Positions 14,698-50,666 of a DNA stretch of 64,000 nucleotides are shown in pieces. Origin of the DNA: Candidatus Woesebacteria bacterium UBA5073 (GTDB lineage Bacteria; Patescibacteriota; Microgenomatia; UBA8517); contig DIAR01000010.1 in the NCBI GenBank assembly GCA_002415845.1, forward strand, positions 12,920 through 76,919, given 5' to 3'. Numbering within the stretch: the stretch's first letter is position 1; the number at the start of each line of letters is the position of its first letter. The notes beneath the pieces were generated by a model. That model was not told where the DNA came from. It made no database searches and was given only the letters and a program-made list of their open reading frames with translations. A program made the translations under genes and the position numbers.

Positions 14698-15360
14698 TTA
14701 ATCAGTATATATCCTGGCCCTGACGATTAATCTTTTTAATTTCCTCGGATCCCCAGGCGGAACACAGGTTACCAGAGTTAAAAAAGAATCGCTGGCATTT
14801 TGCTCCAAAACCTGAATATCGGTCGGAAGAACCTCAAACAGATCTTCAACTCTATATTTAAAAGTAATTCCATCGTAATTGAGAACAATATCATCACCTT
14901 TCTTTAAGGTCGGAATAGTCGAAAAAATGGAAATGTAATCCTTTGGATTATAAAAAATAGGCAGGATTGAATGACCAAAGATAACCGCATTACCTTTTTT
15001 CCCTGGCAGGGCAGTTCCTGGATATTGAATAAGGCTTTTGCCTAAATCATCGCCACCAATTGCCACCGTCGCATTGTCAATTTTAAGTTTTGGAATCGAA
15101 AGGGTATAAAAAGAAACATTGGAAGCATTAAACTCTGCCTGATCGGCTCCGCCCACAAACCAATTGCTGGCCCGGGTGTAATCAAGATTGTCATTTTCAA
15201 CAACGGCCTTATTTTCAACCTCTGGACTAATTAGTTTTGGGTATCTGACCTTAGAGGCAGTTTCATAACCAACAATGGGCAGAATCACGGCTGCCAGAAT
15301 TCCTAAACCCGAGAGGGCAAAAACAACGGCAAAAATACGAAAAAGGATTTTATTCTTCAT
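14698..15360 (-). CDS. Sortase-family transpeptidase
   Basis: 220 aa. N-terminal TM anchor. Catalytic His region (AVIFGHS) and active-site TLVTC motif (TLxTC). The start lies 3 nt after the upstream gene's stop. Confidence 0.75.
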   Translation of the reverse strand: MKNKILFRIFAVVFALSGLGILAAVILPIVGYETASKVRYPKLISPEVENKAVVENDNLDYTRASNWFVGGADQAEFNASNVSFYTLSIPKLKIDNATVAIGGDDLGKSLIQYPGTALPGKKGNAVIFGHSILPIFYNPKDYISIFSTIPTLKKGDDIVLNYDGITFKYRVEDLFEVLPTDIQVLEQNASDSFLTLVTCVPPGDPRKLKRLIVRARIYTD

Positions 15361-15363
15361 TAA

Positions 15364-17568
15364 TTATCTTTCGGCTGAAACAATCACGGTGATATTTTTC
15401 AAAACCCGAGGCATGGTTTTTAATTTACCGGGGAAGCTGGGTTTTATTTTAATATTGGCTCTGGTATATCCGGCAACAGCCGTGGCCAAATAAGGATCAA
15501 TTAGGGCCGGATATTTACCCAAAACACTACTTGTTATTTCATCAACCTTCACCTCAGGCAAAAGATTGACACTAAGAATTGTTGTTAGCTCGTAAACACC
15601 TTCTTCCCCTTTAACTAACTCATATTCCGTATCGATTTGCCCCTCTTTAAGAGCATAACCGGTTGGAATTTTACTGTTCAAAGCTTTTTTGGCCAGTTCA
15701 AACATATCGGTCTTGGCAACGGAAACACCGGAAACCGAAACTTTTAAGGATAATTTTAAATTGGTTGCTTCATCGCCAACCTTAGCGCTAAAAACTTTAC
15801 TGACAACCTCGGGTACAAAAGTGGCATTAATTAAAATCCGATCATCGGCTATTTGCTGACCTAAACTCTTAATCGCTTTTTCGGTCAATTCATTGGTTAA
15901 TTCTTTTTCCAACTTGGCCTGATCCTCAGAAGAGACGGAGGGAATTTCCCGGCTTGAACCTCCGGAAAAATTCTGGGTAGTAAGAGCATCAACTTCGCTT
16001 TTCGGATAGTTACCGATTTTAAAAACTTCATTTGCTCCCAGATTATATTCGGAGCCGATATCATAGGCAGCCACATCAACACTGCCCTCACCCGGCGTGC
16101 TGGGCGACAGTGCCGCCGAGACGGAAGCACTGGAAGTAGTGGTAAATTTCAAATCGGAAGCTGAATAAAGAATTGTTCCGGCCGGAAGATTGATAACCGC
16201 CGCTGTTCCGTTTTGGATTTTGACACTGCCTTTGGCTTTTTCTCCAATTGTCTTTGTTCCGGAAGTACTGGTTGTTTTTTCACCCGACTCTTCGGAGGTA
16301 TAGAGTTTTCCAGCCAAAAGACTGCCGTCAAAATCCGACTGGCTTTCGTTGATGTCAACCGAAAGGGTTAAATTTTCTTCCAAAATTTTGGGTGAAACAA
16401 AAATTTCCAGGGTGGCTTTGGGAATAAACCACCAGAAAAGAAAACCACCAACCAGAAAAACAACGGCTGCAATTAAGAGAGCAATTGTTGGTTTTTTCTT
16501 CACTACCCCTCCCAATCTTCTGTTTTCAACAATATTTTTTTTCTTAAAAGAAATCGGGAAGGCCGGTAGTTTTATCTTTTTCCAAAAAGCCAATTTCGAC
16601 AATATACCCGAAGGTTGGGTAGCAGTCGCCACTGGTTGAGACTGAGGTTGCTGGGGTACTTCTCCAATTGGCTCTGCTTTTGGTTTTTCGGTTATGTCTT
16701 CGTCAACCACAAAACCTAAATCTTCCGGGTGGACATCGGTCTCGGGAACTTGAACGTTGGCTGTTTCTTCCGGATAGGCTTCCATCTTTTCTTCTTCTTT
16801 CTTCACCCCTTCAACCTGAGAAATATTAGACATTTCGGAAGCCCCCGCCAGGGCAGTTGCCACTACTTTTTTATCGGCTTCAATGATTTCAATCTTGGGA
16901 GTATGTAAAAATTTAATCTTTTCATTTTCGTTCCAGGAAGCGGAAAGCAGGTTTTGCCTTATCTCCTCCAACTCTCCTCCCCGACCGTTATAAATTAAAA
17001 ACCTTGACGGCAGTGTTTCTCCGGTTACAAAACGGGAAAGGCCTTCAACCACATCGTCATAAACGGAAAGACTCCTTTGAACTGAAGCCGTACCAACCAA
17101 GTTGCCCAATTTAAAAACAGCCAATTCCAAATTTTCGCTACCGACTTCCAAAACAACTGCACTTAAAGGAGAGCCTTCTTCGGCTTTCATCAGGTGAGCT
17201 ATGGCTTCCGGCAGGACAACAAAGCCGGTTGGTTCCAGTGACAGTTCGGTACAGATTTTTTTAACCTGCTCCAAAAACTCGGGTTTAATCTGACCGTCGG
17301 TTACCCAAAAAGGAGGAACACCAAAAACCGTTTTTGATGGTTCCCCTACTTCTTCTGGTAAATTTTGAATGGCGGCCGACAAAACAGTGTCTGACGCAGA
17401 AATTAAATCATCCTCCGTTTCCCAAGGAGTGGCAGGAGAAACGGCCACCATTTCCGCCTTTTCGTTTTCAATTTTCCAAACACCGGCCTGAATCCAACCG
17501 GTTTCAATTACTAGTGCCCAATAATGTTCTTGGGCAGTACCTTTCGATAAAATACTTTTTAAATCCAT
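15364..17568 (-). CDS. Large single-pass membrane protein: N-terminal actin-fold (FtsA/PilM-like) cytoplasmic domain, one TM helix, about 350-aa extracytoplasmic domain
   Basis: 734 aa. The N-terminus (ALVIETGWIQAGVWKIE ... AVVLEVGSENLELAVFKLG) has the two glycine-rich phosphate-loop-like segments of the actin-fold (ASKHA) superfamily. The TM helix is IALLIAAVVFLVGGFLFWWFI, followed by a Ser/Thr-rich extracytoplasmic region. No recognisable C-terminal sorting signal. Confidence 0.35.
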   Translation of the reverse strand: MDLKSILSKGTAQEHYWALVIETGWIQAGVWKIENEKAEMVAVSPATPWETEDDLISASDTVLSAAIQNLPEEVGEPSKTVFGVPPFWVTDGQIKPEFLEQVKKICTELSLEPTGFVVLPEAIAHLMKAEEGSPLSAVVLEVGSENLELAVFKLGNLVGTASVQRSLSVYDDVVEGLSRFVTGETLPSRFLIYNGRGGELEEIRQNLLSASWNENEKIKFLHTPKIEIIEADKKVVATALAGASEMSNISQVEGVKKEEEKMEAYPEETANVQVPETDVHPEDLGFVVDEDITEKPKAEPIGEVPQQPQSQPVATATQPSGILSKLAFWKKIKLPAFPISFKKKNIVENRRLGGVVKKKPTIALLIAAVVFLVGGFLFWWFIPKATLEIFVSPKILEENLTLSVDINESQSDFDGSLLAGKLYTSEESGEKTTSTSGTKTIGEKAKGSVKIQNGTAAVINLPAGTILYSASDLKFTTTSSASVSAALSPSTPGEGSVDVAAYDIGSEYNLGANEVFKIGNYPKSEVDALTTQNFSGGSSREIPSVSSEDQAKLEKELTNELTEKAIKSLGQQIADDRILINATFVPEVVSKVFSAKVGDEATNLKLSLKVSVSGVSVAKTDMFELAKKALNSKIPTGYALKEGQIDTEYELVKGEEGVYELTTILSVNLLPEVKVDEITSSVLGKYPALIDPYLATAVAGYTRANIKIKPSFPGKLKTMPRVLKNITVIVSAER

Positions 17569-37939: not shown

Positions 37940-38236
37940 ATGCCAGTAACCAAAACAGCCAAAAGAGCCCTCAGAAGCTCAAAAAGAAAGAGTGAAGTTA
38001 ACGCCAAAATTGCCGCCCAATTGGCGGTTTTAATGCGTCAAGCCAAAAAAACCAAATCGGCCGAAAAAATTAGAATGGCTATGTCCTTGGCCGATCGTGC
38101 CGCCAAGAAAAAGGCCATTCATGCCAATAAAGCTTCACGAATTAAAAAGGTTTTGGCCAAATTAATGCCTAAGGTTTCCGTTAAAACCGCTGCTAAAAAA
38201 ACCGTTAAAAAGACCCCTGTTAAGAAAAGTAAATAA
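37940..38236 (+). CDS. rpsT: 30S ribosomal protein S20 with Lys-rich C-terminal extension
   Basis: The track ORF starts at 37808, but MPVTKTAKRALRSSKRKSEVNAKIAAQL at 37940 is the S20 N-terminus. Tail KVSVKTAAKKTVKKTPVKKSK. Confidence 0.85.
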   Translation: MPVTKTAKRALRSSKRKSEVNAKIAAQLAVLMRQAKKTKSAEKIRMAMSLADRAAKKKAIHANKASRIKKVLAKLMPKVSVKTAAKKTVKKTPVKKSK

Positions 38237-38282
38237 TCCCCTTTTTCCCTTTCGGTCAGCCTCAGCAATATGATATAGTGGT

Positions 38283-38858
38283 TTGATGGCTGCCCTTAAA
38301 AAAGTAATTAAAATTAATCTTTTACCCCAAGAAGAATTTGCCAAAAGTACTTTTGGGCGAATCTTAACTTGGGCCTTATCCGGTTTCAGAGTCATCGTTA
38401 TTGCCGTGGAACTGATAGTGATGGCGGCTTTCCTTTCCCGCTTTTGGCTCGACGCTAAAATTAACGATTTAAACGATGTTATCCGGCAAAAACAAGCTTT
38501 AATTTCTTCCCAAGGCGAGTTTGAAAAGAAATTCAGGGATATTCAAACCAGAATCACCATTTTTAGCGGAGCCAAAGCCATGGCTTCTACCCCCTCAACC
38601 GAACTGGAAAAAATTGCCGCTTTTCTGCCAATGGATGTTGCCCTTTCTTCATTTACCTTTAATGAAGGAAAGGTTCAGATAAAAGGTGTTGCCGGCAGTG
38701 AAATTTCGGTTGCCCAATTAATGGCCAATTTGGAAGGAACCAAGCAATACAAAGAGGTTCTTTTAACTTCCGTCGGCAATGACCCAAAAAATGAAGCCAT
38801 GATTACTTTTATCCTGGATTTAACACTGGGAACAACCGAACAAAAGAAAGGAACTTAA
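38283..38858 (+). CDS. pilN: Type IV pilus assembly protein PilN-like
   Basis: 191 aa. N-terminal KINLLPQEE motif characteristic of PilN, a single TM helix, a coiled-coil segment and a periplasmic domain. Confidence 0.5.
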   Translation: MMAALKKVIKINLLPQEEFAKSTFGRILTWALSGFRVIVIAVELIVMAAFLSRFWLDAKINDLNDVIRQKQALISSQGEFEKKFRDIQTRITIFSGAKAMASTPSTELEKIAAFLPMDVALSSFTFNEGKVQIKGVAGSEISVAQLMANLEGTKQYKEVLLTSVGNDPKNEAMITFILDLTLGTTEQKKGT

Positions 38859-38861
38859 AGA

Positions 38862-39512
38862 ATGGCACCTAATTGGCGAAAAGAATATTCCCGTTATCAA
38901 ATCATCTTTGCAAAGGTTTTGGAAGTTTATCGAAAAAGACCGGACGTCAAAACTTTTCTTGAACTACTTCTGACTCTTTCGACTGTGGCTATTTTTACTG
39001 TTTTTGCTTTAAAACCAACTGTCATTACCATTATTCAACTTCTAAAAGACATTAAAACCAAGGAAACGGTCATTGTACAAATGGATACCAAAATCAAAGC
39101 CTTGGCTAGTGCCCAAAACCTTTTTTCCCAAGAAGCCAGAAGAATCGTTTATGTTACCAAGTCAGTTCCGGAAAAAGCCTTACCGGAAAACCTTGTCCGT
39201 GAATTGGAGGGTTTGGCCCAAAAGAACGCCGTCACCCTAAACAGTGTTTCAATTAACGAATTAACCCTTCTTGGGGTAAGTACCGAAAAGGTTAATCCAA
39301 AGGAACAAATTTTTCTTCAGGGAGCCAGTGGGCTAGCTTTTACCGCCAACACAAATGCCGACTTTACCGTCCTGCTACCTTTCTTAAAAGATTTGGAAAA
39401 GTTTTTGCGGCCGGTTGTTCTTGACAGCTTTTCCATAGCCACGGGTGTCAATCAAGAAACCAAAACAATCAACATGTCTATTTCAGGCAAGGTTCCGTAT
39501 TTGAGTAAATAA
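38862..39512 (+). CDS. pilO: Type IV pilus assembly protein PilO-like
   Basis: 216 aa. Short N-terminus, TM helix (LLLTLSTVAIFTVFAL), coiled-coil and a C-terminal alpha/beta domain. Lies immediately after the pilN-like gene, separated by 3 nt. Confidence 0.4.
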   Translation: MAPNWRKEYSRYQIIFAKVLEVYRKRPDVKTFLELLLTLSTVAIFTVFALKPTVITIIQLLKDIKTKETVIVQMDTKIKALASAQNLFSQEARRIVYVTKSVPEKALPENLVRELEGLAQKNAVTLNSVSINELTLLGVSTEKVNPKEQIFLQGASGLAFTANTNADFTVLLPFLKDLEKFLRPVVLDSFSIATGVNQETKTINMSISGKVPYLSK

Positions 39513-39514
39513 TT

Positions 39515-39847
39515 ATGCCCAAAAAACAAAAACCATTTTTTGTAAGAATTGTTATCCTTTCAACCGTCACGGCCATTGTCTGGGTTGGATCAACTATTTA
39601 TAAAACCGTTTCAAAAAAAGAGGAGCCGAACATTCCCGTCCAGATATTAGAACCCCTGACTCCGACTTTAGACAAAAAGGTACTTGACGAATTAGAGAAT
39701 CGGGTGTTTCTTGAAGAGAGCACAATCCCTGAAACAAGGGTTGAGGTTGGTGTTCAAGCAGCAACACCAAAACCGGTTGAAACGATTGCCCCGGAGGAAA
39801 CACCTGTGGCGACCGAATCAGGAGAAGAAGCAGGAGAAGAAATATGA
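39515..39847 (+). CDS. Small single-pass membrane protein, acidic Pro/Glu-rich C-terminus (hypothetical; PilP-like position)
   Basis: 110 aa. N-terminal TM helix (FFVRIVILSTVTAIVWVG). Overlaps the next gene by 4 nt. Confidence 0.35.
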   Translation: MPKKQKPFFVRIVILSTVTAIVWVGSTIYKTVSKKEEPNIPVQILEPLTPTLDKKVLDELENRVFLEESTIPETRVEVGVQAATPKPVETIAPEETPVATESGEEAGEEI

Positions 39848-41166
39848 AAAAAAGAAATAAAATCCCGACGGTTATTGGTTTCTTTGTCCTTGTCTTTGGA
39901 CTGGCAGCCGGAGTTTTTCTGGTTCAAACTAAACAACTTTTTAAGACCAGTGCCTCGCTTGATACTACCCCCTCTTCGGTTCAGATTTCCAACACGACCG
40001 ACAGTTCTTTTACAATTACCTGGCTTACTTCCAAGGAAACAACGGCTTTTGTTAAGTTGGGTGACAGTGCCAGTCTTGATCAAACTTTAACCGATGAAAT
40101 TGCCAACCCGTCTTTTACCCATTCGATAACCGCAAAGAATTTAACACCGGGGACTCCCTACTTTTTTAAAATCAATTCCGACGGAACTGATTTTGACAAC
40201 AACACTACTCCCTGGCAAGCCCAAACCGGACCTACCTTAACGGGAACGGCCGGCTTTAGCGTTAATGCTTCCGGAACGGTTTTGGACCAAACTTCAACTC
40301 CGGTTGAAAAGGCTTTGGTTTTCTTAAATATCGGTGGAGGGGTAACTCTTTCCGGAGTAACTTCCCAAAATGGCACCTGGGTTATTCCTATTAACGGCGT
40401 TAGATTATCCGATCTGTCGGGTTATCTTAATGTTGACCCGACCCAAACTTTAATTGAGATTTCGGTTAATGCCGGACCAAACGGAATTTCAACCGCCCAA
40501 ATATATCCTCAATCGGTGGCGGCCGTCTCAACTATGGTTTTGGGGCAAGTTCATGATTTCCGAAACCTGGCCCCGGCCAATGCCGGAGGCGTTCCTTCAT
40601 CCTCACTGGAAGCACCGCTTGAAACAACCGAGTCTTCAAGTTTTAATGTTGGTGATAAAGTTTCGACACCCTCGGCCAAAAAAGTAACTCTGGATAACAT
40701 TGATAACGGTGAAATCGTTAATACCCAAGACCCAGAATTCTTTGGTAAAGCACCGGCCGGAACAACCCTAACCATTACCGTTGAATCGGACGATCCGGTA
40801 ACCGAAACGGTTAAAGCTTCCGCAACTGGAACGTGGAATTGGGATCCGCCTAAAGATTTAACTCCGGGAGAACATAAAATTACCGTTAAATGGAAAGACA
40901 CCAGCGGTATTTGGCAAACCATAACCCGCACCTTTATTGTTTCAGCATCCGAAGGTCCGGCTTTTGTTTCCACCCCTTCAGCTACTTTAAAAGCAACTAA
41001 AACGGCAACACCAACAGCGACAAAAAAACCAACCGCTAAACCCTCTCCCACCGGGGCAGCCGACATCCCCGAATCTGGCAGCTTGACACCTACTCTCATC
41101 CTTTCTATTATGGGGGTAGGCGCAATTGCTATGGCTTTATTGTTTTGGAAGAAAGCCGAATATTAA
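39844..41166 (+). CDS. Secreted multidomain surface protein (FN3-like, carboxypeptidase-regulatory/CnaB-like and Ig-like domains) with C-terminal IPESG sorting-signal-like tail
   Basis: 440 aa. N-terminal signal or anchor helix. An FN3-like segment (SVQISNTTDSSFTITWLT...PGTPYFFKI), then a SGTVLDQTSTPVEKALVFL transthyretin-like domain, then an Ig-like domain. The C-terminus reads IPESGSLTPT, a 20-residue hydrophobic helix, then KKAEY. Confidence 0.6.
   Translation: MKKRNKIPTVIGFFVLVFGLAAGVFLVQTKQLFKTSASLDTTPSSVQISNTTDSSFTITWLTSKETTAFVKLGDSASLDQTLTDEIANPSFTHSITAKNLTPGTPYFFKINSDGTDFDNNTTPWQAQTGPTLTGTAGFSVNASGTVLDQTSTPVEKALVFLNIGGGVTLSGVTSQNGTWVIPINGVRLSDLSGYLNVDPTQTLIEISVNAGPNGISTAQIYPQSVAAVSTMVLGQVHDFRNLAPANAGGVPSSSLEAPLETTESSSFNVGDKVSTPSAKKVTLDNIDNGEIVNTQDPEFFGKAPAGTTLTITVESDDPVTETVKASATGTWNWDPPKDLTPGEHKITVKWKDTSGIWQTITRTFIVSASEGPAFVSTPSATLKATKTATPTATKKPTAKPSPTGAADIPESGSLTPTLILSIMGVGAIAMALLFWKKAEY
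41065..41163 (+). other. C-terminal tripartite sorting-signal-like segment: IPESG, hydrophobic helix, KKAEY
   Basis: Read directly from the translation. The DNA atccccgaatctgg is nearly identical to the equivalent site in the 43368-44039 gene. Confidence 0.5.
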
Positions 41167-41173
41167 AAACTAA

Positions 41174-42778
41174 ATGCCCAACGACCAGCCCGATCAAACC
41201 AACCCAATAAACACACTGCCCGTTAATCCACAACCGGTCACCCCACCAATTCCAGAACCAGCTGTTGTTACACCGCCAATGGATATTCCCCCAATGCCGG
41301 AACAATCAATGGAAACACCGATGGCAGACGGTTCAGCCGCTCCGTCAGTTGATATGCCACCAATGGTGACAGGCGGAGGACCAACCAAAACCAAGAAAAA
41401 ATTCGGAGGGGGAAAGTTTATTCCTACTATCTTAGGACTATTAATTCTCACCGGAGCCGTTAGTGCCGGAGCATATCTTGTTAGACAAAATCAGGATGTA
41501 AGAGAAAAAGCAGCTGGTGCTTGCGATGCTAGTCATGTTGGCGACAGGGAAATTACTAGTTGTACAACCACCGATGGATGTTCGGGGCAAATGACAAGTA
41601 CTTGCATTATGAATGGTCCAAATCTTTATTATTGGGTTGACGGCACTTGTGTCAAAAATGATGCAAATTGTCCAGAACCTGAGGTAACTTGTGTAAATAA
41701 AAATCAGAGTTGTGCCACACAACCCTGTTGTGAAGGCCAAGGAACTTGCCAAACTACCCCTTATGGAAAAGTCTGTGCAGATCCAACCTGTACTGCCGGA
41801 CAAACCAAATGTCAGGCCGAGGGATCGTCGTTCTTTGAATATACATGTCAGAATGGAGGTTTTGTTAAAACAAAGACTTGTCCTGAAGGATGTAGCGGAA
41901 ACGTTTGTGCAAATACGGCAACTTGTGTAAATCTTAGCCAAACTTGTAGTGATTCAAAACCCTGTTGTGAAGGCCAAGGAACTTGCCAAACTACCCCTTA
42001 TGGAAAAGTCTGTGCACAACCAACCTGTACTGCCGGACAAACCAAATGTCAGGCCGAGGGATCGTCTTATTTCCAATATAATTGTGACAATGGAGGTTTT
42101 GTTAAAACAAAAAATTGTGGAACTGCAGGATGCAATGGAAACGTTTGTGCGACAAGTTCGAACACTTGTACAACTACTGGTGATTGTGTGTCTTTCTGCA
42201 ATCCGGACAACCCAGCATGTTGTGGTGGCGGAAGCGACTTGCAAAATTGTAGCGAACCTGGGTGTAAGTCGGCCAGTTGTCAGTTAAACCAGGGGAAAAA
42301 GGAATGTTATTGCACCGGCACAAATTTATGTACAAATTGGATCGAAAATTGGAGTGTTTGTACGACAGCCGGAAACACGAATTCTTGTACGCCAAACAGT
42401 AAAAAATGTTATCAAACCAGATTTTGTGCCACCCCGGGAATTAATGAATATCAAATTGCTGAATGTGATTGTGGAACTGTTGTAGTTTATCCACAGTGTA
42501 GTGCCGTTAAAGCTTATAAAACCGACTGGACTGCCCTTAATACGACTCAGCTTTCAGCTCTTGCTCCCGGAACAGTGGTTAGATTTACGGTTTTAGGAGC
42601 CAACGGTACTTTTACCCAAGCCAGATTTAAAATAACCGGAGACACTACCTGGAGAACACCGGTTACGACCAAGAAACTTAGTACCGATGAGTTTTATACG
42701 GAATACACTATACCGACAACAGGTGGAACAATTACGGTTGAAGCCCAGGTGGGAACATCAACCGATGCTTGGTATTAA
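41174..42778 (+). CDS. Cysteine-rich type II membrane protein: Pro-rich cytoplasmic N-terminus, one TM helix, large extracellular Cys-rich domain with two tandem roughly 80-aa repeats
   Basis: 534 aa. N-terminal MPNDQPDQ...PPMVTGGG...KKKFGGGK, then the TM helix FIPTILGLLILTGAVSAGAYLV, then the YLVRQNQDVREKAAGA motif. About 60 Cys residues follow. Repeat 1 is CVNKNQSCATQPCCEGQGTCQTTPYGKVCADPTCTAGQTKCQAEGSSFFEYTCQNGGFVKTKTC; repeat 2 is CVNLSQTCSDSKPCCEGQGTCQTTPYGKVCAQPTCTAGQTKCQAEGSSYFQYNCDNGGFVKTKNC. Confidence 0.6.
   Translation: MPNDQPDQTNPINTLPVNPQPVTPPIPEPAVVTPPMDIPPMPEQSMETPMADGSAAPSVDMPPMVTGGGPTKTKKKFGGGKFIPTILGLLILTGAVSAGAYLVRQNQDVREKAAGACDASHVGDREITSCTTTDGCSGQMTSTCIMNGPNLYYWVDGTCVKNDANCPEPEVTCVNKNQSCATQPCCEGQGTCQTTPYGKVCADPTCTAGQTKCQAEGSSFFEYTCQNGGFVKTKTCPEGCSGNVCANTATCVNLSQTCSDSKPCCEGQGTCQTTPYGKVCAQPTCTAGQTKCQAEGSSYFQYNCDNGGFVKTKNCGTAGCNGNVCATSSNTCTTTGDCVSFCNPDNPACCGGGSDLQNCSEPGCKSASCQLNQGKKECYCTGTNLCTNWIENWSVCTTAGNTNSCTPNSKKCYQTRFCATPGINEYQIAECDCGTVVVYPQCSAVKAYKTDWTALNTTQLSALAPGTVVRFTVLGANGTFTQARFKITGDTTWRTPVTTKKLSTDEFYTEYTIPTTGGTITVEAQVGTSTDAWY
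41690..42170 (+). repeat. Intragenic tandem direct duplication, two copies of about 240 bp with long identical nucleotide stretches
   Basis: For example, ccctgttgtgaaggccaaggaacttgccaaactaccccttatggaaaagtctgtgca occurs at about 41721 and again at about 41961. actgccggacaaaccaaatgtcaggccgagggatcgtc also occurs twice. This explains the near-duplicate spurious ORFs at 41712-41930 and 41949-42287. Confidence 0.85.
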
Positions 42779-42784
42779 AAATAT

Positions 42785-43342
42785 ATGAATAATTCTAAAA
42801 AGAAAATCTCAAGTTTTGTAATTCTGTTTGCCACGGTTATTTTGGCAGGTGTTGCCATCTTTACGGCTGTAAGACTTTATCAATTAAGACAACAGGCCGT
42901 TGCCCCTAATGTTCCTACCAGTAAACCAAAGGCAGCTGATAATGCCAGCAGTTGTCTTTTAACTTTTACCATTTCCGTTTCCTCGACTTCCCCGTCGCCG
43001 ACGGCAACATCGTCCTCTCAACCGACACCAACGGCTACGGCAGTGGCGACAGTGACCCCCACTCCAACCTCAACCGGTGGAACACCAAACAATTGTGGTG
43101 GCACCTGCGGCTCAAATGCCAACTGCAACTCGGCCCTTATTTGTTATTCCGGTTTTTGCCGAAATCCATCTTGTACTTCAGACACCGATTGTGTCTGCGG
43201 AACAACAGCGCCGACACCCACTAAAACAGCTGCACCAACCGAAGAACCTTCCTTACCAGATGCCGGAGTATCAACACCAACCCTCTTTGGCTTTGGAGCA
43301 GGCATAATTCTTCTGATTGTCTCTCTTGCTCTTGCCCTTTAG
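42785..43342 (+). CDS. Small secreted Thr/Pro-rich protein with an 8-Cys knot-like module and C-terminal LPDAG sorting-signal-like tail
   Basis: 185 aa. N-terminal anchor or signal (FVILFATVILAGVAIFTAV) followed by RLYQLRQQA. A T/P-rich linker. The Cys-rich module is NNCGGTCGSNANCNSALICYSGFCRNPSCTSDTDCVCG. The C-terminus is LPDAGVSTPTLFGFGAGIILLIVSLALAL. Confidence 0.55.
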   Translation: MNNSKKKISSFVILFATVILAGVAIFTAVRLYQLRQQAVAPNVPTSKPKAADNASSCLLTFTISVSSTSPSPTATSSSQPTPTATAVATVTPTPTSTGGTPNNCGGTCGSNANCNSALICYSGFCRNPSCTSDTDCVCGTTAPTPTKTAAPTEEPSLPDAGVSTPTLFGFGAGIILLIVSLALAL

Positions 43343-43367
43343 TCTCTTTTATCGGTATAGTTAAAAC

Positions 43368-44039
43368 ATGCCAACAGATAATCAGAATCCTGCCAATCCT
43401 CTGCCACCTGAAGCACCGATGATGGTAACGGGTGGAGGGAAAGCTAAACAAAAAGTAAATTTCAAAACCATTGCCCTGATTATCGGTATATTTGTCCTTT
43501 TGGGTGGAATCGGTACCGGCTATTACCTTCTTCAACAAAATCAAGACATCAGAAAAAGAGCCCAGGGTGGTGAGGAACAGTGCACCGTATCCCAATGTCC
43601 ATCTGACGACGATCCAAATCGTCTGGCTGAATGTTCTGATTTGGATAATACATATAATATTTCTGTTTGTAGCGAAGAAAGGGCGGGTCAAATTGTTACT
43701 TGTGACGGAGAACCTTTTTGTTGTCCTTATGCTGGTGGAGACTGGACAAACGACACAACTGAATGTGGAAGCTCCCGAACAGCAACACCCACGGCAACGG
43801 CAAAACCAACTGCTACAGCTACCGCTGCATCTGGTGCAACTTTAACTCCTACCCCGACATCAACCGGCTCAAGCGGTGTTAAAACCCCTACCCCAACACC
43901 AACACCAAGAAAAACCGGGTCGACCACCACAACCGCAACACCCGCACCCATCCCCGAATCCGGTGTTTCTACTCCAACCATTGTCGGACTTGGTTTAGGA
44001 GCCCTGCTTCTTCTTGTTTCGCTTGCCCTAGCTATCTAA
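43368..44039 (+). CDS. Small secreted Cys-rich, Thr/Pro-rich protein; paralogous N-terminal anchor module (MVTGGG, TM, YLLQQNQDIRKRAQGG) and C-terminal IPESG sorting-signal-like tail
   Basis: 223 aa. N-terminal MPTDNQNPANPLPPEAPMMVTGGGKAKQK, the TM helix, then YLLQQNQDIRKRAQGG; compare the 41174 gene. A Cys-rich module with 10 Cys, a T/P/A-rich linker, and the C-terminus IPESGVSTPTIVGLGLGALLLLVSLALAI. Confidence 0.55.
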   Translation: MPTDNQNPANPLPPEAPMMVTGGGKAKQKVNFKTIALIIGIFVLLGGIGTGYYLLQQNQDIRKRAQGGEEQCTVSQCPSDDDPNRLAECSDLDNTYNISVCSEERAGQIVTCDGEPFCCPYAGGDWTNDTTECGSSRTATPTATAKPTATATAASGATLTPTPTSTGSSGVKTPTPTPTPRKTGSTTTTATPAPIPESGVSTPTIVGLGLGALLLLVSLALAI

Positions 44040-44043
44040 AGAG

Positions 44044-46497
44044 TTATCTCCAGGAGATTAACCAATAATATGATTTATCCAACCAAAGAGGAATTTGAAG
44101 TCCTGCCCAATGGGGATAAAAATAGAAAAACAACAGAAGGGTAATTCCCAGAACCGGAAGGATCAGTTTTTCATTTTTTCTTAAAACAAAACCGGACGCC
44201 AGACACATAAAAGGAACCGCGGGCAAATAGTGATAGAAAAACATAATCCTGGGCGACATCATCCAGGGAACAAAAAAGATCAGATAAGAAAAGATAACCA
44301 AAGCCAGCTTTTTATTCTTTTCGATAAAAGCATAATAAAAAGACATGATAACGGAAGTTAAACCAAACCAAAAGACGGCCGGATTCCCGAGATTATAGAT
44401 TCTGGCTACATATCCATTAACTTCATCGCTGGTATACAAATAGACCGGCCGAATCAAGAAAGGCCAACTTAAAGCCTGTGAGGTATACGGATGTGTCGCT
44501 TTCAAACCGGTATGGTACCACCACATCTGTTTTTGGACTCCCCAAAAAATATCCAAGCCGTGGCCCGTTAAAAACATGGGCGTATAAGAAGCCAAATAAA
44601 TAAGAAGCGGCACAACAGCAAAAGAAAAAAGGGACAGATCAAATTTTTTCTTTCTGGATAACCAAATCAGAAAAAGAATCGGCAGACAATACAAAGATGA
44701 CCACTTGGAAGCAAGGGCTAAACCAAAGGCAACGGCTGAAAGAAAATTCTTTTTTTGTAAGAAGAGATAAACCGTCAAAAGAATGAAAAACAAAACATAA
44801 CTGTCATTCATCCCTATCCGGCTCATCGTTAAAAACAAACCGTCCATAGAAAAAAAGAATGAGGCAATAAGCGCCAGTATTTCATCTTTGAATAATTTCT
44901 TGGCCAAGAAGTAAACCAGGATTGTGCTTCCGACGCCCAAAAGAGCTCCCGGAATTCGCCAGCCAAAAGCGTTCTCACCAAAGACAAGCATCCCCAACCA
45001 CATCCCCAATTTAGCCAACGGCGGATGCGTCCATTCATAGGCAAAACCTTCCGGTGGTGTGTTCCACCATTCCCAAGCAGCTACATTACCATTAAGCATT
45101 TGTCTGGCGGTAAAAGCATGATAAACCTCATCAAAATACTCGCTCTCTGGTTTATTCAAAAACAAAACTCGGGAAAAAAAAGCAAAGACAACAATTAAAA
45201 CAAAAAAGATTTTGATTAGTTTGGGATTTAATTTAATTTTGGGGAATCCTGCTTTTTCTTTGGGTAGCTTAAAACTTTTATTTTTAATGGAAAGATAAAA
45301 GTTTTTAATTTTCAACAGATAATTGGCCTTTTGTCCCAAAATTACTTCTTTTAAAAGAAGAGAGAAAGCAGCCAAATTAGCGATAATAAAAAGCTTGATA
45401 ATCGGTTCTGAGAAAATCTCCTTAAAATCATTAGTAATCCAAACATAGGAATAGGCCAGATTGGCAACATAAGTTAGTGATAAAACCAGATAAACCAGAA
45501 TCAGGTTGGGTAGGGAAATTGCAGCCACTAAAAGCGGTGCCAAAATTGGCAAAAGGTGTCTTTCGTGCATACGGGTCAAAAACAAAAAGGCCGACAAAAG
45601 AACTAAGGCAACCGGCAAATATTTATCTTCCCTATTCTTGGACTTTAAAAGATAAACGCCAAAAGTTAATGAAACCAAAAAGAGGCCAACGTACGATAAC
45701 GGTATTTGGGTCAGGTCTGATTTCCAGAAACCAAAAAGGCCCCAGAAATTAAAGGCATTAACCGAACCGTACGGATACTGGTTCAAAGTTACGGAAAGTC
45801 TTTCCGCTATAAAAGATAAAAGCGGTTGTCCATCCAGGAATGGAACAAAGCCTAAAGAAAAAATTGCTAAACCAACAACCCCATATAAGACAAGGTTGAC
45901 TATTTTTGTTTTGTTTTTAATTAAAAAATAAATTATGACCGGTAAAATAAATCCTGCCTGTGGTTTAATCAGCGTTCCCAACGATAAGGTAATGGCCGAG
46001 AAAAGCCAGTTCTTTTCCAAAAGATAAACGGCCAAAAGAATAAACAGAGCCGAAAGAGAATCAACCTGACCCCAAAGAGTTGAGTTGGTAATAATCGCCG
46101 GATTAAAAAAATAAAGACTGGCTAAAATTAGACTCCATTTCTCCTCCAGTTTTTTTCTGGCAATTTTAAAAATCAAAAAGCCGGTCAATAAATCCGCCAT
46201 AATCGCCGGCAATTTATAAAGTAGCACTTGGGGAAGAATTGATAGTTGGTTTATCTTTCCTAAAAGAAACAACAAATAGGGATACCCCGGAAGGTAATCC
46301 GACCAGCCCAAATAATATTTAGAAAAACCTTCATCAACCAAAATATTGCTCCAGGCCAAAAAGGTATTGAAGTCAAGTTGTAGCGTTCCGAAAAAGGAAA
46401 GAACAATCCTTAAGGTAAGAGCCGTCAGGATTAAAAACAGAATCTTGCTTTCAAGCAGTTTATTTAACTTCGTAAATTTTAACGCTATTGTTTTCAT
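44044..46497 (-). CDS. Two-module polytopic membrane protein; the C-terminal half is a GT-C glycosyltransferase of the PMT/ArnT (GT39/GT83) type
   Basis: 817 aa with more than 20 predicted helices. The second half carries a PMT-like first-loop motif (SEYFDEVYHAFTARQM ... EWTHPPLAKLG ... RIPGALLGVGSTILVYFLAKKLF ... MNDSY). The N-terminal half is another polytopic domain (NILVDEGFSKYYLGWSDYLPGYPY). Confidence 0.55.
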   Translation of the reverse strand: MKTIALKFTKLNKLLESKILFLILTALTLRIVLSFFGTLQLDFNTFLAWSNILVDEGFSKYYLGWSDYLPGYPYLLFLLGKINQLSILPQVLLYKLPAIMADLLTGFLIFKIARKKLEEKWSLILASLYFFNPAIITNSTLWGQVDSLSALFILLAVYLLEKNWLFSAITLSLGTLIKPQAGFILPVIIYFLIKNKTKIVNLVLYGVVGLAIFSLGFVPFLDGQPLLSFIAERLSVTLNQYPYGSVNAFNFWGLFGFWKSDLTQIPLSYVGLFLVSLTFGVYLLKSKNREDKYLPVALVLLSAFLFLTRMHERHLLPILAPLLVAAISLPNLILVYLVLSLTYVANLAYSYVWITNDFKEIFSEPIIKLFIIANLAAFSLLLKEVILGQKANYLLKIKNFYLSIKNKSFKLPKEKAGFPKIKLNPKLIKIFFVLIVVFAFFSRVLFLNKPESEYFDEVYHAFTARQMLNGNVAAWEWWNTPPEGFAYEWTHPPLAKLGMWLGMLVFGENAFGWRIPGALLGVGSTILVYFLAKKLFKDEILALIASFFFSMDGLFLTMSRIGMNDSYVLFFILLTVYLFLQKKNFLSAVAFGLALASKWSSLYCLPILFLIWLSRKKKFDLSLFSFAVVPLLIYLASYTPMFLTGHGLDIFWGVQKQMWWYHTGLKATHPYTSQALSWPFLIRPVYLYTSDEVNGYVARIYNLGNPAVFWFGLTSVIMSFYYAFIEKNKKLALVIFSYLIFFVPWMMSPRIMFFYHYLPAVPFMCLASGFVLRKNEKLILPVLGITLLLFFYFYPHWAGLQIPLWLDKSYYWLISWR

Positions 46498-48424
46498 AGA
46501 CTTTTTTTATATTTTGGTTGTTGTCAAAAAGAGTTTCGCTGTTCGGATTTTTATCCCTTTCCTCACCACCCAAGTAAATATACCTTGCATTATACTTGGC
46601 AAGAACGGTTTTTGTGTAATTAAAATCATCGGCTTTTTGATACAGGGACTCAATATCTTCAAGCCTGGCAAAAACATTATCCTCACCCGTATTATAACCG
46701 TGTGAATACGGCCAGTTAATATAGGAAAGAACCCTCAGCCTTCCCCCGATTTCCGAAACGGCCGAATGAACGGTCGGGTAAGTTATAAAAACCGATTTCT
46801 GGGGCGTAGCCCTTCTTATAAAAAGACCGGCCGCAAGTTCATCAAGAGAATAGCCCATGTTTTTATTTAAGGTGCTGTTAGTCAGGGTTAAAAAGGAGGA
46901 AAAGGTGGTCACCAAAATAAGAAGGCCGAACAAAATTTCCAAAACCAATTTCTTTCTAAAAATAAGATCCAAAAACCAAAAAGAAACAATCGACATAAAA
47001 ACAACCATGAAATAAAAAAACTTAAACATGTCGCCTTTGTAAATCGTAAAGCGAACGAAATACGGTATAGCGAAAAAAACTAAAGACAACGAAACAAGAA
47101 GGAAGAATTCTTTTTTAATTGGTTTCTTTTGAAAAAATCGGACAATTACCCAAAATAAAGACAAAAGGGTCAGGAAAAAAGGCAAACCGAAATTAGAAGC
47201 AATAAACCTTAAGTGCCAAAAAATGTTTTTCTCTCTTTCCCAAGGACCAAAGGAAAAATTTTCTTTAACCAGACTAAAAAAGGATTGCTGATTAACGCTT
47301 CTGTTCGAAAATAAAAGATAGCAGGAAGCAAAAACAGCCAAAAAGATTAAGGCACTCTTAACAAAAAACTTAAATTTCTTTTTTTGAAAGAAAAAAAGGG
47401 TGGTAATCGTAAAGACAATCAAAGAAACAACAACCGCAAAAAATTGAAACTTAATTAAAAAACCGGCGATCAAACCAGCTAGAAAAATAATTCTAAGATC
47501 CTTCTTCTTATAAGCGAAAATTGATAAAAGTAAAATGATAATTACGGCCGGAAGGCCAATCATCATCGGTCGATTTTGCAAAAAGTAATCAGCCATGTTG
47601 GCCATCTGAAAAAGCTGATCATATTCCATCGAATATTCATGACTGGAAAGAAGCCCAACTATATTTTTTATTAGAGACAATTTGCCAAAGTTCTGCCAAA
47701 AATCGTAAATGAATTTAACAAAAAGATAACTACTGAAAAGAGTTCCAGAAAAGGCCGAGGCCAAAGCAATTATTTTCTTTTTGGTTAACTCATACACCAA
47801 GCCGTAAATTGAAAGAGTAAAAATCAGGGCAAAAAAGGGATTGTCATAAACTAAAATTCTTGGGAAAAAACGGCCATAAAGAGTGGAAATAATGGCCGAA
47901 TGAAAATCGGCAAAGTAGTAATAAGACAGGGAAACACCGCTGTAATAGGGCGCTTGGGGTGGAAAATTGCCCTGGGTAAGACTTTGAATAATTCCCTGAT
48001 GCATGGCCGTGTCCTGCCAATTAACCGAGGCCATAACAATGTAACCTTCATACTCAGTGAAGATGGCGGGATATAAAGCCAGAAAGAACAAGAGAAAGAT
48101 AAAAACGCCCATAAACAAAGCCTCTTTATGATTTTGAAAATATTTTTTAAAAACCCGTCCGATACTTTTGTAAGAACAAACCAGCCAGGGAATAAAAAAG
48201 GCGAAAGAAAGAAGAATTGAATAACGGGAAAAACCAACCAATAAACTAACCAAGTACACCAAATAAGAGGACAGAATCACGCTTAAAAGAAAGATCGATG
48301 GTAGTTTAATCCTTACCGGAAGCTTAGGAAAAAACGTTTCGATTACATAGAAACCCGGAATGAAAAAGGTAAAGATAAAACCCAAGATTAAAAGACTGTG
48401 GTCTATGATATTGCCGGCCATCAT
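46460..48424 (-). CDS. Polytopic membrane protein with C-terminal soluble domain; probable GT-C-fold glycosyltransferase-like (family undetermined)
   Basis: 654 aa. About 13 hydrophobic helices, then a roughly 140-aa hydrophilic C-terminal domain. Overlaps the downstream gene by 38 nt. Confidence 0.35.
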   Translation of the reverse strand: MMAGNIIDHSLLILGFIFTFFIPGFYVIETFFPKLPVRIKLPSIFLLSVILSSYLVYLVSLLVGFSRYSILLSFAFFIPWLVCSYKSIGRVFKKYFQNHKEALFMGVFIFLLFFLALYPAIFTEYEGYIVMASVNWQDTAMHQGIIQSLTQGNFPPQAPYYSGVSLSYYYFADFHSAIISTLYGRFFPRILVYDNPFFALIFTLSIYGLVYELTKKKIIALASAFSGTLFSSYLFVKFIYDFWQNFGKLSLIKNIVGLLSSHEYSMEYDQLFQMANMADYFLQNRPMMIGLPAVIIILLLSIFAYKKKDLRIIFLAGLIAGFLIKFQFFAVVVSLIVFTITTLFFFQKKKFKFFVKSALIFLAVFASCYLLFSNRSVNQQSFFSLVKENFSFGPWEREKNIFWHLRFIASNFGLPFFLTLLSLFWVIVRFFQKKPIKKEFFLLVSLSLVFFAIPYFVRFTIYKGDMFKFFYFMVVFMSIVSFWFLDLIFRKKLVLEILFGLLILVTTFSSFLTLTNSTLNKNMGYSLDELAAGLFIRRATPQKSVFITYPTVHSAVSEIGGRLRVLSYINWPYSHGYNTGEDNVFARLEDIESLYQKADDFNYTKTVLAKYNARYIYLGGEERDKNPNSETLFDNNQNIKKVYENNSVKIYEVK

Positions 48425-48442
48425 ATTATTATATAAAGAATC

Positions 48443-49603
48443 ATGTTAAAAAAATGGGGTTTTTGGTTTCTTTTGTTTTTGGGACTCCTTTTAATTATTT
48501 ATTGGGCTACTTCGCCCGGTAATACACCGTATAACTATTTTGTTAAGTTGAGTGAAGCTTTCCTGAAAGGCCAATACTGGTTAACCGATAACCCGCCCTG
48601 GCTTAACGAATTAATTAGCGGTCCAAACGGTAAATACTTTATTCCATATCCGCCCATGCCGGCGATACTTGCCCTTCCTTTTGTTTTTATTTTCGGTGGG
48701 GAATTCCCCCAGCAAATTCTTGGCCACCTGCTGGGTGTCGGCATTGTTCTTTTCACCGTTAAATCCGCCCTTCTTGTTAAGAAAAATTATAAAATTGCCG
48801 TTTATATTGGTCTTTTAACCGGTCTTGGAACAATTGTTTGGTATTTGGCCTCCAACGGTTCCGTCTGGTATCTGGGACAAATTTCGGCGGCTTTTTTCCT
48901 CACTGTGGCCATCAACGAAACCCTGGATAAAAAAAGGCCTTTTGTTGTAGGCCTTCTTATCGGAGCAGCCTACCTTTCCCGGGTTAATACTTTTGTCTGT
49001 CTACCTTTTTTCTTTTTCCTAATGATTAAAGACAAACGTTTTTTCAAGAAAAGTATTCTGCTTGCCCTGGGATTATTGCCTTTTTTGGGTTTTAATTTTC
49101 TCTATAATTTTCTGCGTTTCGATGTTATTTGGGATAAAGGTTATAGCCTAATCCCCGGTGTTTTATCAGAACCATGGTATCAAAAAGGTCTTGTTTCCCT
49201 TTCTTATATTCCCAGGCACTTAAAAATTCTTTTTCTTTCCTTACCAAAATTCATAAATAAATTTCCTTTTGTTTATCCTTCCTGGGGAGGCCTAGCAATT
49301 TGGATAACGACACCGGCTTTTATTTATGCTTTATGGGCTCCCTGGAAAGAAAAACTGACAAAACTTTCTTGGTTGGCTATCGCCTTAATCTCAATTATCA
49401 TTTTCTCCCACGGAACAACCGGCTTTACTCAATTCGGATATCGCTTTGCGGTTGATTTTTATCCTTTCCTTCTTCTCTTAACCATTAAAGGAATTGCTAA
49501 AACGGGCTTAAAATGGCATCACTGGGTTTTACTCACCTTAAGTATATTGGTTAATTTCTGGGGTGTTCTTTTTATTAATAAATTAGGGTTTGTCAGTTTC
49601 TAG
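48443..49603 (+). CDS. Polytopic membrane protein, possible GT-C/DUF2029-like glycosyltransferase (hypothetical)
   Basis: 386 aa with roughly 9-11 predicted TM helices. No soluble domain. Confidence 0.3.
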   Translation: MLKKWGFWFLLFLGLLLIIYWATSPGNTPYNYFVKLSEAFLKGQYWLTDNPPWLNELISGPNGKYFIPYPPMPAILALPFVFIFGGEFPQQILGHLLGVGIVLFTVKSALLVKKNYKIAVYIGLLTGLGTIVWYLASNGSVWYLGQISAAFFLTVAINETLDKKRPFVVGLLIGAAYLSRVNTFVCLPFFFFLMIKDKRFFKKSILLALGLLPFLGFNFLYNFLRFDVIWDKGYSLIPGVLSEPWYQKGLVSLSYIPRHLKILFLSLPKFINKFPFVYPSWGGLAIWITTPAFIYALWAPWKEKLTKLSWLAIALISIIIFSHGTTGFTQFGYRFAVDFYPFLLLLTIKGIAKTGLKWHHWVLLTLSILVNFWGVLFINKLGFVSF

Positions 49604-50666
49604 TCAGAAGATCGCTTACCCAAGCGTTCACTTTCGTCCAATCTCCGTCTTTGGGAATAAAAACATATTGATTGTCATATTCTGTGGTTGGTTTGGGATT
49701 AACTAAAAAGTCCTCGGATAAAACAACCGATCGGATATGACTACTCGCCTCTAAAAACTTTCGTCCCAAGATAGCCACCGCCGATGAATCAATATCCGTC
49801 TCGACCGAATTTACAAAAACTTTCCAAATACCAAACATTTTTTTAGGCGAAAGAAAAACAGACGGGTTTAACATTTTTGTTTTAATGGCCGAAAGCATTT
49901 TTTGCTGACGGGCTTCCCTGGCTAAATCCGTTCCCTCAACACCTGAAGAGTTCCTCGACCGGACATACTTTAAAGCCGTTGTTCCATCCATATGCATTTT
50001 TCCTTTTTCAAAAGTTATTGTTTCATAACGGCACTTATATTCCTTATCCCCGTCACATAAATCGTTTTCTTTACCATAAATGGGATATTTTTCATCGGTA
50101 AAAGAATTTTCAACCATGACGTCAATTCCTCCGATCACATCGATTGCTTTGGTAAAACCGGAAAAATCAATTACCAGCCCGTAATGAATCGGTTGTCCCA
50201 CAATTTCCCCAACCAGTGATTTAGCTAAATCCATTCCGCCCCATTCTTCTTTTTGTTTTCCCCAAAAATAGGCACTGTTTAACTTGGCCCTAATTTCCGG
50301 TACCCAGATATCTCTTGGTAAAGAAACCATTACGAGGGATGGTTTCTCAATGGAAAGCGAGGCGAAAATAATCGTGTCGGTTAAGTCGGGGGCCGTAAAA
50401 CCAGTTCCGCTTCGTCCCAGAATTAAAATATTGGTTCTCCCGGCAAAAGTTTTAATTTTTGTTTCCGGCGTAAACAAGAAATCGGTGATCAGGTGGCGAT
50501 TATTATATTTACCAAAAAAGAAACCGGCAAAAAGAAGAACGGAAACAAGGGAAACAAAAATGAGAAGAATTAGATTGAGCATCGCCTGTTTTTTTCTTCC
50601 CCCAATAGCCCCAACATCACCCTGCCTTTGATCTTTAGAATTGCTATACTGCATCGATATGACCAT
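49593..50666 (-). CDS. LytR-CpsA-Psr (LCP) family phosphotransferase (cell-wall glycopolymer ligase)
   Basis: 357 aa. N-terminal TM helix, then the LCP core: NILILGRSG...DTIIFASL...SLPRDIWV...KLNSAYFWG...IHYGLVIDFSGF..IDVIGGIDV. The true start may be an internal Met, since the annotated 5' end overlaps the divergent pcrA start. Confidence 0.8.
   Translation of the reverse strand: MVISMQYSNSKDQRQGDVGAIGGRKKQAMLNLILLIFVSLVSVLLFAGFFFGKYNNRHLITDFLFTPETKIKTFAGRTNILILGRSGTGFTAPDLTDTIIFASLSIEKPSLVMVSLPRDIWVPEIRAKLNSAYFWGKQKEEWGGMDLAKSLVGEIVGQPIHYGLVIDFSGFTKAIDVIGGIDVMVENSFTDEKYPIYGKENDLCDGDKEYKCRYETITFEKGKMHMDGTTALKYVRSRNSSGVEGTDLAREARQQKMLSAIKTKMLNPSVFLSPKKMFGIWKVFVNSVETDIDSSAVAILGRKFLEASSHIRSVVLSEDFLVNPKPTTEYDNQYVFIPKDGDWTKVNAWVSDLLTRN

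Follow-up and report, generated by a model that had tools for sequence, protein, structure and literature searches.

Why should neighbouring genes whose products carry unrelated ectodomains begin with nearly the same N-terminal stretch? The question is raised by a window of 64,000 nucleotides (the whole stretch of DNA analysed here; contig DIAR01000010.1, positions 12,920 to 76,919 of the forward strand) from Candidatus Woesebacteria bacterium UBA5073, an uncultured, ultra-small bacterium known as a population of a sediment metagenome. Two plus-strand genes of this window, encoding a Cys-rich protein of 534 amino acids (aa) (p534, 41174-42778) and a protein of 223 aa (p223, 43368-44039), share a module of 55 residues composed of a Lys cluster, a 22-residue Gly-rich helix and the motif QNQD[IV]R-x-[KR]A. 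BLASTP of p534 against p223 returns a single significant segment (residues 60-116 against 15-68, 46% identity, E 8e-14), outside which the two proteins do not align. This bears out the common N-terminal architecture described in an earlier note on this DNA, whose quoted sequences are all found at their positions in the window. At the DNA level the two modules are ~55% identical and differ by many synonymous changes, indicating that their similarity has been kept by selection on the protein and reflects no recent duplication or gene conversion. A six-frame scan of the window with the strict motif finds it in the p534 and p223 open reading frames only. Our tentative answer, at slightly less than even odds, is a specialised leader of the Sec type, restricted to this lineage, that would be read as an extended strand and cleaved behind an invariant Ala.

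In p534 the module follows a leader of 71 residues (41174-41386, + strand) that starts with MPND, contains GSAAP..D and PPMVT, is rich in Pro, Thr, Ser and Asp and is predicted to be cytoplasmic and disordered. The leader passes into the Lys cluster KTKKKFGGGK (residues 72-81, 41387-41416, +), a positive-inside n-region, which is followed by the 22-residue Gly-rich hydrophobic helix FIPTILGLLILTGAVSAGAYLV (residues 82-103, 41417-41482, +) and by the juxtamembrane motif RQNQDVREKA (residues 104-113, 41483-41512, +), ending in the invariant Ala113. Beyond the module lie a hypervariable Cys-rich middle and a conserved C-terminal immunoglobulin (Ig)-like beta-sandwich (residues 441-534, 42494-42775, +). 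In p223 the module spans residues 25-65 (43440-43562, +), with the Lys cluster, the helix T34-L55 at 43467-43532 and the motif QQNQDIRKRA at 43533-43562, and scores 71.8 bits against the module hidden Markov model (HMM); a small domain with eight Cys, a Pro/Thr linker and a sortase-type C-terminal signal follow. We considered that translation of p534 might start internally, at the Met of MVTGGG, which would turn the module into an ordinary signal peptide. Met occupies this position in only 51% of the relatives, and an internal start is rejected because the frame is open upstream, an MP start is found in ~80% of the relatives (MP[DNKT][DQ] in the family leaders), and the gene of the upstream 440-aa protein, p440, ends only 7 nt away.

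How widely is the module distributed? An exhaustive HMMER search of 1.84 billion protein cluster representatives with a two-sequence profile of the module (p534 and p223) matched 594 representatives at E<=1e-3 and 124 at E<=1e-10. The module is present in all of the best 150 matches, with the consensus GSAAPxDD-x-PPVVT-xx-PKKKF[GA]GGK[IV]IATILGLFLLVGGVGAGVYL[VT]QQNQDIREKA, usually at residues 50-200 and behind a leader rich in Pro, Thr, Ser and Asp. About 130 of these 150 also have in common the C-terminal ~100 residues of p534 (...YTIP...HH.TLGW[KF]), which makes p534 an ordinary member of a large family and p223 the unusual carrier. The motif is thus kept across 594 clusters and in related genomes numbering in the hundreds; the likeness far exceeds chance and is not limited to two recent paralogs. 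A scan of loci, taking one genome per species, returned 46, all of them in metagenome-assembled genomes (MAGs) of Candidatus Woesebacteria, Microgenomates or Patescibacteria. Many MAGs with the full Woesebacteria-type operon and flanks bear the title "uncultured Gammaproteobacteria bacterium", and one "Alphaproteobacteria" (L007, L009, L014, L016-L018, L026, L028, L030, L032-L034, L045, L046); these titles appear to be placeholders or wrong taxonomy. A word-indexed protein search returned only p223 itself for the p223 N-terminus and six short fragments for the module alignment, one of which carries a JGI label, "HemX", that we take as uninformative. Pfam and NCBIfam hold no family for the module or for the C-terminal domain of p534, as judged with p534, p223 and 111 relatives, and we found no earlier description of the module or its operon in the literature searched.

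The module is by far the best conserved part of the p534-family proteins. Among 109 full-length relatives of p534, mean pairwise identity is 0.27 in the leader, 0.66 in the module, 0.14 in the Cys-rich middle and 0.45 in the C-terminal domain; the conservation of the motif does exceed that of the ectodomain, a comparison that the earlier note had proposed as a check. The family leader has a median length of ~74-80 aa, reaches 173 aa, contains 21% Pro and follows the consensus GSAAPxxDxxxPPxxT. In the logo the Lys cluster reads K79/K84/K92/F83/G/G/K89 (per cent). Within the helix, the positions A-T-I-L-G, L22, G24/25, G27-A28-G29 and L32 are 82-100% conserved in a small-xxx-small pattern, and A/T/I/L/G, L22, G24, G29 and L32 reach 95-100%. 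Residue statistics for the juxtamembrane region, taken over 168 unique sequences and numbered backwards from the invariant Ala as -1, show A(-1) and Q(-7) to be invariant (100%), E(-3) to be present in 91% and L(-12) in 98%. The information content alternates with a period of two over the ten residues that follow the helix (Q-9 3.71, N 2.94, Q-7 4.32, D 2.99, I-5 3.22, R 2.72, E-3 3.75, K 2.78 and A-1 4.32 bits), and then drops to 1.30 bits at +1. Ala, Gly or Ser stands there in 63% of these sequences and Pro in none (0/168 against a background of 7%), although Pro is common from +3 onward.

An AlphaFold 2 (AF2) model of p534, built with 111 relatives, shows a disordered leader without secondary structure (predicted local distance difference test, pLDDT, 46-64), a helix at 83-105 that ends at Q105, and a juxtamembrane motif modelled as low-confidence coil. 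Behind these stand two beta-hairpin Cys-rich repeats and the C-terminal beta-sandwich (pLDDT >92). Foldseek of the model against the PDB gave generic Ig-like matches only (best E 0.05). A search of the PDB with a profile of the whole family found no match, and one with the module showed only a non-significant resemblance to the ErbB2 transmembrane dimer (E 0.013). The p534 gene itself contains a tandem duplication of a 79-aa Cys-rich unit (41709-41881 and 41946-42118; 173 nt, 90% identical, 237 nt apart). Other assemblies of the same population break within the p534 gene, L001-L004 beginning inside it, and the exact 534-aa product is absent from the records, the nearest entry (P0002) differing by one residue. 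In the wider family, 2 of 111 proteins carry Hint/intein-type domains in the variable middle (PT-HINT 8.5e-13, Intein_splicing 4.7e-10), and a few others match the Cys-rich modules DUF7107, Dickkopf_N and Stig1.

Is the module confined to the p534 family and p223? We find that it is not. The 440-aa protein p440 (39844-41166, +), an fn3/Ig-like surface protein with Pfam matches to Pur_ac_phosph_N/fn3, Big_13 and CarboxypepD_reg, begins with a short-leader signal (residues 1-37, 39844-39954, +; MKKRNK-IPTVIGFFVLVFGLAAGVFLV-QTKQLFKTSA). Comparison of the module with the N-termini of p440 orthologs by hhalign gives a probability of 97.9% (E 5.3e-13) over 33 gap-free columns, K-I-P-T-I-L-G...A-G-V-F-L...Q-x-F-[KR]-x-x-A, and the module HMM matches the N-terminus of every p440 ortholog. 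These N-termini follow the pattern K[IL]PTILG...AGVF.....Q.F[KR][LI]GA, and the invariant Ala of the module falls on the Ala of F[KR][LI]GA, which looks like a canonical -3/-1 site and follows a short n-region of the MKKxK type. No multi-span membrane protein of the window matches the module, hence the p440 match is no artefact of composition. The kinship of p440 suggested in the earlier note is thereby established; its further proposal, that the 185-aa protein p185 carries a shorter version (LYQLRQQA), fails, as the hhalign probability is 1.2% and no relation is detectable. The N-terminus of the 110-aa operon protein p110 is likewise rejected as a short version (0.3%).

In all, at least three ectodomain architectures stand behind the module: the p534 family, p223-like proteins with sortase-type signals, the fn3 family of p440, and singletons of 106-644 aa. 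The loci contain 11 further paralogs, from small ones (106-340 aa) up to 644 aa; some lie within the operon, others amid housekeeping genes without a neighbour that recurs. Their helices differ in sequence, but L-[VI]-[KRQ]-[QR]-N-Q-D-I-R-E-x-A is retained. Relatives of the p223 type occur in five loci (L042, L046, L041, L025 and L026). The motif is missing from ~20 other proteins of these loci that are anchored by their N-terminus. The idea of a leader placed on unrelated ectodomains thus holds to the extent of these architectures; its main carrier is a single-copy ortholog at a fixed operon position, so that it is not a general leader. A 2792-aa protein (L041:1-8377, - strand) has an N-terminal helix followed by ...NFDFRELA; the similarity to the final D-phi-R-E-x-A of the motif is a hint that giant surface proteins, too, may carry the box.

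The genes in question lie in a conserved operon, rpsT-pilN-pilO-p110-p440-p534-p185, which spans 37940-43342 in the window and is found in ~40 Woesebacteria/Microgenomates genomes. Its first assembly gene encodes a PilN homolog (38283-38858, +; Pfam PilN E 1.5e-12, 47.8 bits at a cutoff of 22.8) and the next a PilO homolog (38862-39512, +), which is supported by a profile of 37 orthologs against Myxococcus xanthus PilO (3jc8, E 6.6e-8) and by Pfam PilO matches in 35/37 orthologs. They are followed by p110 (39515-39847, +), a small bitopic protein kept in ~34 loci and without a Pfam match, then by p440, p534 and p185 (42785-43342, +), the last of which has a conserved helix of its own at the N-terminus (LAGVAIFTAxRLYQLRQQ.VAPN) and LPDAG with a transmembrane helix at the C-terminus. 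With the exception of ribosomal protein S20, all operon products are bitopic, each with its own conserved transmembrane helix. The p534 family gene is a single-copy ortholog with a fixed place, and p223 is an extra gene in the window. Intergenic gaps of -4 to 25 nt indicate that p534, p185, p223 and the upstream genes form one transcription unit. In nearly all loci dnaK-grpE-hrcA-murJ run on one strand, the operon diverges on the other, and a convergent gene for a PMT-type glycosyltransferase closes the operon end. Genes for PilB, PilC, PilD and PilM are found neither in the operon nor in the 64-kb window.

Several side features of this neighbourhood deserve mention. In some genomes extra genes stand between p440 and p534, encoding either a ~325-aa bitopic protein without the motif or small module carriers of 106-197 aa whose ectodomain starts with GC-KY..DR.SC (L012:7773-8819, L019:7828-8805, L030:5818-6786, L031:7786-8766 and L048:7658-8635; L005:9217-9537 and L008:3844-4437). 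A syntenic glycosyltransferase cluster lies beside the operon at 44044-50666 (817 aa, PMT_2/PMT; 654 aa, DUF2298; 386 aa; and an LCP-like protein); its glycosyltransferases are large membrane enzymes of the GT-C type, and O-glycosylation would find natural targets in the Pro/Thr-rich stalks of p185, p223 and p440. The window contains no tRNA gene, and its GC skew is negative in all 2-kb bins despite several switches of gene orientation.

Three products of this transcription unit end in [IL]P[ED][SA]G and a hydrophobic tail: p440 with IPESG (41065-41163, +), p185 with LPDAG (43253-43339, +) and p223 with IPESG, as read from its sequence (43950-44036, +). A basic tail is found in p440 only (IPESG, transmembrane helix, KK tail), and p185 orthologs share the C-terminal motif LPxxGT[SD]WPT. 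Several of the small paralogs (106-340 aa) end in IPETG, IPDSG or LPQSG with a hydrophobic tail. Against the LPXTG_anchor model, relatives with IPETG or LPQSG score 13.8-14.1 bits, below the cutoff of 15.9, and the window copies are unmatched. A sortase gene is present at 14698-15360 on the minus strand (Pfam Sortase E 3.8e-23; TIGR01076 E 1.1e-15), and its product is a candidate enzyme for these C-terminal signals. The gene directly after the sortase (14698-17568 for the pair, - strand) encodes a 734-aa protein whose sole Pfam match is a Baseplate_J-like segment (27.4 bits, cutoff 21.1), an odd pairing for a genome of the candidate phyla radiation (CPR). In p223-like proteins, p440 and several unlinked paralogs the order is signal, N-terminal domain, Pro/Thr stalk, [IL]Px[ST]G and transmembrane helix. 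This wall-anchored layout makes sense only if the N-terminus is freed, which favours processing after the invariant Ala.

Which of the known export signals, if any, does the module represent? A type IV prepilin (class III) signal is rejected, in agreement with the earlier note. Immediately before the helix stands Lys (89%) or Arg (9%), not Gly, the Gly residues lying farther upstream (by 2-5 positions) after a Phe; in p440 orthologs K-[IL]-P-T, without Gly, precedes the helix; position +5 is Thr in 98%, not Glu, and there is no acidic residue anywhere in the helix. Pilus-assembly neighbours are present, PilN and PilO being encoded directly upstream and in synteny in ~40 genomes. The likeness to prepilins lies in the position of the module genes behind pilN-pilO and in a basic stretch and hydrophobic helix that are the best conserved part of hypervariable proteins; unlike prepilins, the module lacks G(-1), F(+1) and E(+5), has its polar motif C-terminal to the helix and may follow a leader of up to 200 residues. 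A lipobox is rejected as well, since the first Cys comes at a variable +2 to +8 after the invariant Ala, >=12 residues past the helix, and so is a Tat signal, since RR is absent from the n-region, whose Lys cluster has K in 79-92% of the sequences at each position.

A Sec signal cut by signal peptidase I comes closer. The n-h-c layout is there (KKKFGGGK cluster, 22-residue helix, 10-residue polar stretch), the -1 residue is small (Ala 100%) and Pro is lacking at +1. A short n-region is confined to p440 and some paralogs, that of the p534 family being long, and the -3 residue is small or aliphatic only in the p440 version (Leu/Ile), the module having Glu in 91%. Compared with Gram-positive Sec signals, the n-h-c order, Ala at -1, a small +1 residue, the missing Pro and the canonical-looking [LI]-G-A of p440 are alike; the Glu at -3, the 22-residue h-region, the invariant 10-residue c-region, the leader of 50-200 residues and the extreme conservation of the module are not. 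The YSIRK-G/S signals of Gram-positive LPXTG proteins resemble the module in being conserved, lineage-restricted motifs of an export signal that are found on unrelated passenger domains and coupled to sortase substrates, which are putative ones in the case of the module. We reject this type, as p534 and p223 have no Pfam or NCBIfam match to it at E<=0.1 and 111 family members have none either; moreover, the motif of the module lies in the h- and c-regions and not at the n/h border, and a long Pro-rich pro-region precedes it. Nor is a KxYKxGKxW accessory-Sec signal recognised: NCBIfam gives no match, and the motif is missing from the leader consensus. Genes for SecA2/SecY2 are found neither in the 64-kb window nor in the 20-kb loci.

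The accessory-Sec (SecA2/SecY2) signals of serine-rich-repeat adhesins such as GspB share with the module a very long n-region, a Gly-rich core and nearby glycosylation genes; their cargo is anchored by sortase, that of the module putatively so. In the GspB signal peptide, a precedent for a long Gly-rich leader that selects its export route, the substitutions G75L/G79A/G80C in the core re-route export (PMC5578698), and a region beside the signal is reported to take part in recognition and to be bound by SecA2 (PMC5578698 and its ref. 19). The module differs from these signals in that its conserved part is a helix with a 10-residue strand before an invariant Ala, and in belonging to the CPR and not to Firmicutes. 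In function it would be closest to such long Gly-rich accessory-Sec signal peptides, and it also resembles the YSIRK type; no sequence motif is common to it and either of them. A link to the CPR Pam pilus, with its donor-strand pilins (bioRxiv 10.64898/2026.03.03.709456), is rejected because the gene context differs: the pam operon lies with ATP synthase, corB and a tail-fibre-like gene, the present operon with dnaK-grpE-hrcA-murJ and rpsT-pilN-pilO. The feature is a lineage-restricted variant of a conserved-motif export signal or anchor.

How might such a leader work? From the positive-inside rule we infer that module proteins have their N-terminus inside and their C-terminus outside: a Lys cluster precedes the helix, a stretch without net charge follows it, and the C-terminal part is rich in Cys of the disulfide type. 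The Lys cluster would keep the N-terminus in the cytoplasm, together with the disordered Pro-rich pro-region of 50-200 residues in the p534 family, and the Gly-rich helix of 22 residues would insert into the membrane in this N-in orientation. On the outer face, the ten residues behind it, (Q)QNQDIRE(K)A, would then be bound as an extended strand by a membrane-associated partner reading the alternate side chains Q-9, Q-7, I-5, E-3 and A-1. Proteases and beta-strand-docking partners both bind peptides as extended strands, and the period-two conservation combined with the predicted coil points to such a reading of the juxtamembrane stretch. A cut after the invariant Ala, most likely by an enzyme resembling type I signal peptidase, would free the Cys-rich ectodomain. 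For p223-like proteins and p440, attachment to the wall through the putative C-terminal sortase signal would be the subsequent step. Conservation that ends sharply at an Ala never followed by Pro favours processing at this point, as does the homology of this Ala to the -1 residue of the canonical-looking site of p440. The unusual conservation of helix and strand and the fixed place behind pilN-pilO suggest that the leader also directs its carriers to a particular export or assembly site. The shared recognition or processing site that the earlier note had imagined is supported in kind, agreeing with the invariant Ala, the period of two, the abrupt loss of conservation and the missing Pro, with cleavage itself being inferred; no dedicated peptidase or secretion gene was found beside any copy.

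Several observations weigh against cleavage of a Sec-type leader. Canonical signal peptidase I is not known to accept Glu at -3, a hydrophobic helix of 22 residues has the length typical of a stable anchor, and the c-region offers neither Pro nor Gly to break the helix. For a cleaved signal it is unusual to have a leader of 50-200 residues with motifs of its own (MPxD, GSAAPxDD, PPVVT), and the conservation of these motifs is a hint that the leader keeps a role in the cytoplasm. Neither a peptidase nor SecA2/SecY2 nor another dedicated gene was found near any copy; none of the unlinked paralogs was seen to have a dedicated peptidase beside it, and no gene with signal peptidase I motifs was found in the window. 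Proteins of the p534 family, which have no anchor at the C-terminus, would be released by cleavage. Finally, the naive p of 4e-6 for the missing Pro at +1 is only indicative, since the 168 sequences are phylogenetically related.

Could the module instead be an uncleaved type II signal-anchor, whose Gly-zipper helix (G-x5-GG-x-GAG) and strand dock p534, p440 and p223-like proteins on PilN/PilO or on each other in a stable complex, with the Pro-rich leader as a cytoplasmic tether? We regard this as the main rival, though as rather unlikely. The length of the helix, its small-xxx-small positions conserved at 95-100%, the cytoplasmic motifs of the leader and the Glu at -3, which speaks against signal peptidase I, all argue for it, as does the fixed place of the gene in an operon encoding six bitopic proteins, of which the first two are true homologs of PilN and PilO. 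The closest resemblance among solved sequences is to the ErbB2 transmembrane dimer, at the non-significant E value given above, and the period-two conservation fits beta-strand addition to a PilN/PilO domain equally well. Yet the unlinked paralogs retain the juxtamembrane motif and not the helix sequence, both ends would be tethered in proteins that have a putative sortase signal and a Pro/Thr stalk, conservation stops exactly at an Ala never followed by Pro, and the homologous segment of p440 resembles an ordinary cleavable signal.

Common descent alone, with an ordinary anchor or signal peptide spread by duplication or domain shuffling within one lineage and no specific recognition, is improbable. 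It would suit a main carrier that forms one orthologous family, and paralogs that could stem from local duplication inside the operon. Ordinary signals and anchors drift fast, however, and here the module keeps 66% identity next to a region with 14%; the two window copies retain their residues despite many synonymous differences, specific polar residues outside the membrane are invariant, and ~20 other anchored proteins of these loci lack the motif. We give hardly any credence to the last alternative, a non-canonical pilin-like assembly helix that forms the polymerisation core of a fibre built on PilN/PilO and exposes hypervariable domains, as type IV pilins and archaeal proteins with class III signals do. 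A most conserved N-terminal helix joined to a hypervariable ectodomain is the pilin pattern, and the genes do follow pilN-pilO directly; nevertheless, Gly at -1 and Glu at +5 are missing, p440 has no Gly before the helix, the conserved motif comes after the helix and not before it, PilB, PilC, PilD and PilM are not encoded in the operon or the window, and several carriers also have sortase-type signals.

What would a specialised Sec-type leader mean for these bacteria? Almost nothing is known on how CPR bacteria build the cell surface that they use for host attachment. With an N-terminal tag defined by its sequence, part of the Woesebacteria surface proteome could simply be listed from the sequences themselves. 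The tag stands on a hypervariable Cys-rich protein, on an fn3 protein and on proteins of the sortase type, is linked to a conserved pilN-pilO operon, and would point to a dedicated targeting or processing step. The arrangement suggests that PilN/PilO homologs may work outside the classical pilus machine. Even if the module is an anchor only, it marks out a widespread protein family that had no annotation, and a conserved envelope operon of six genes; the interest would be greater if a dedicated reader or peptidase exists. One may go further and speculate, against the odds, on a new protein-sorting system of Woesebacteria/Microgenomates in which a motor-free PilN/PilO platform recognises TILG...QNQDIREKA and passes hypervariable Cys-rich adhesins and some sortase substrates to a peptidase that cuts after the Ala. 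If true, the C-terminal sorting signals LPXTG, PEP-CTERM and GlyGly-CTERM would have a counterpart at the N-terminus.

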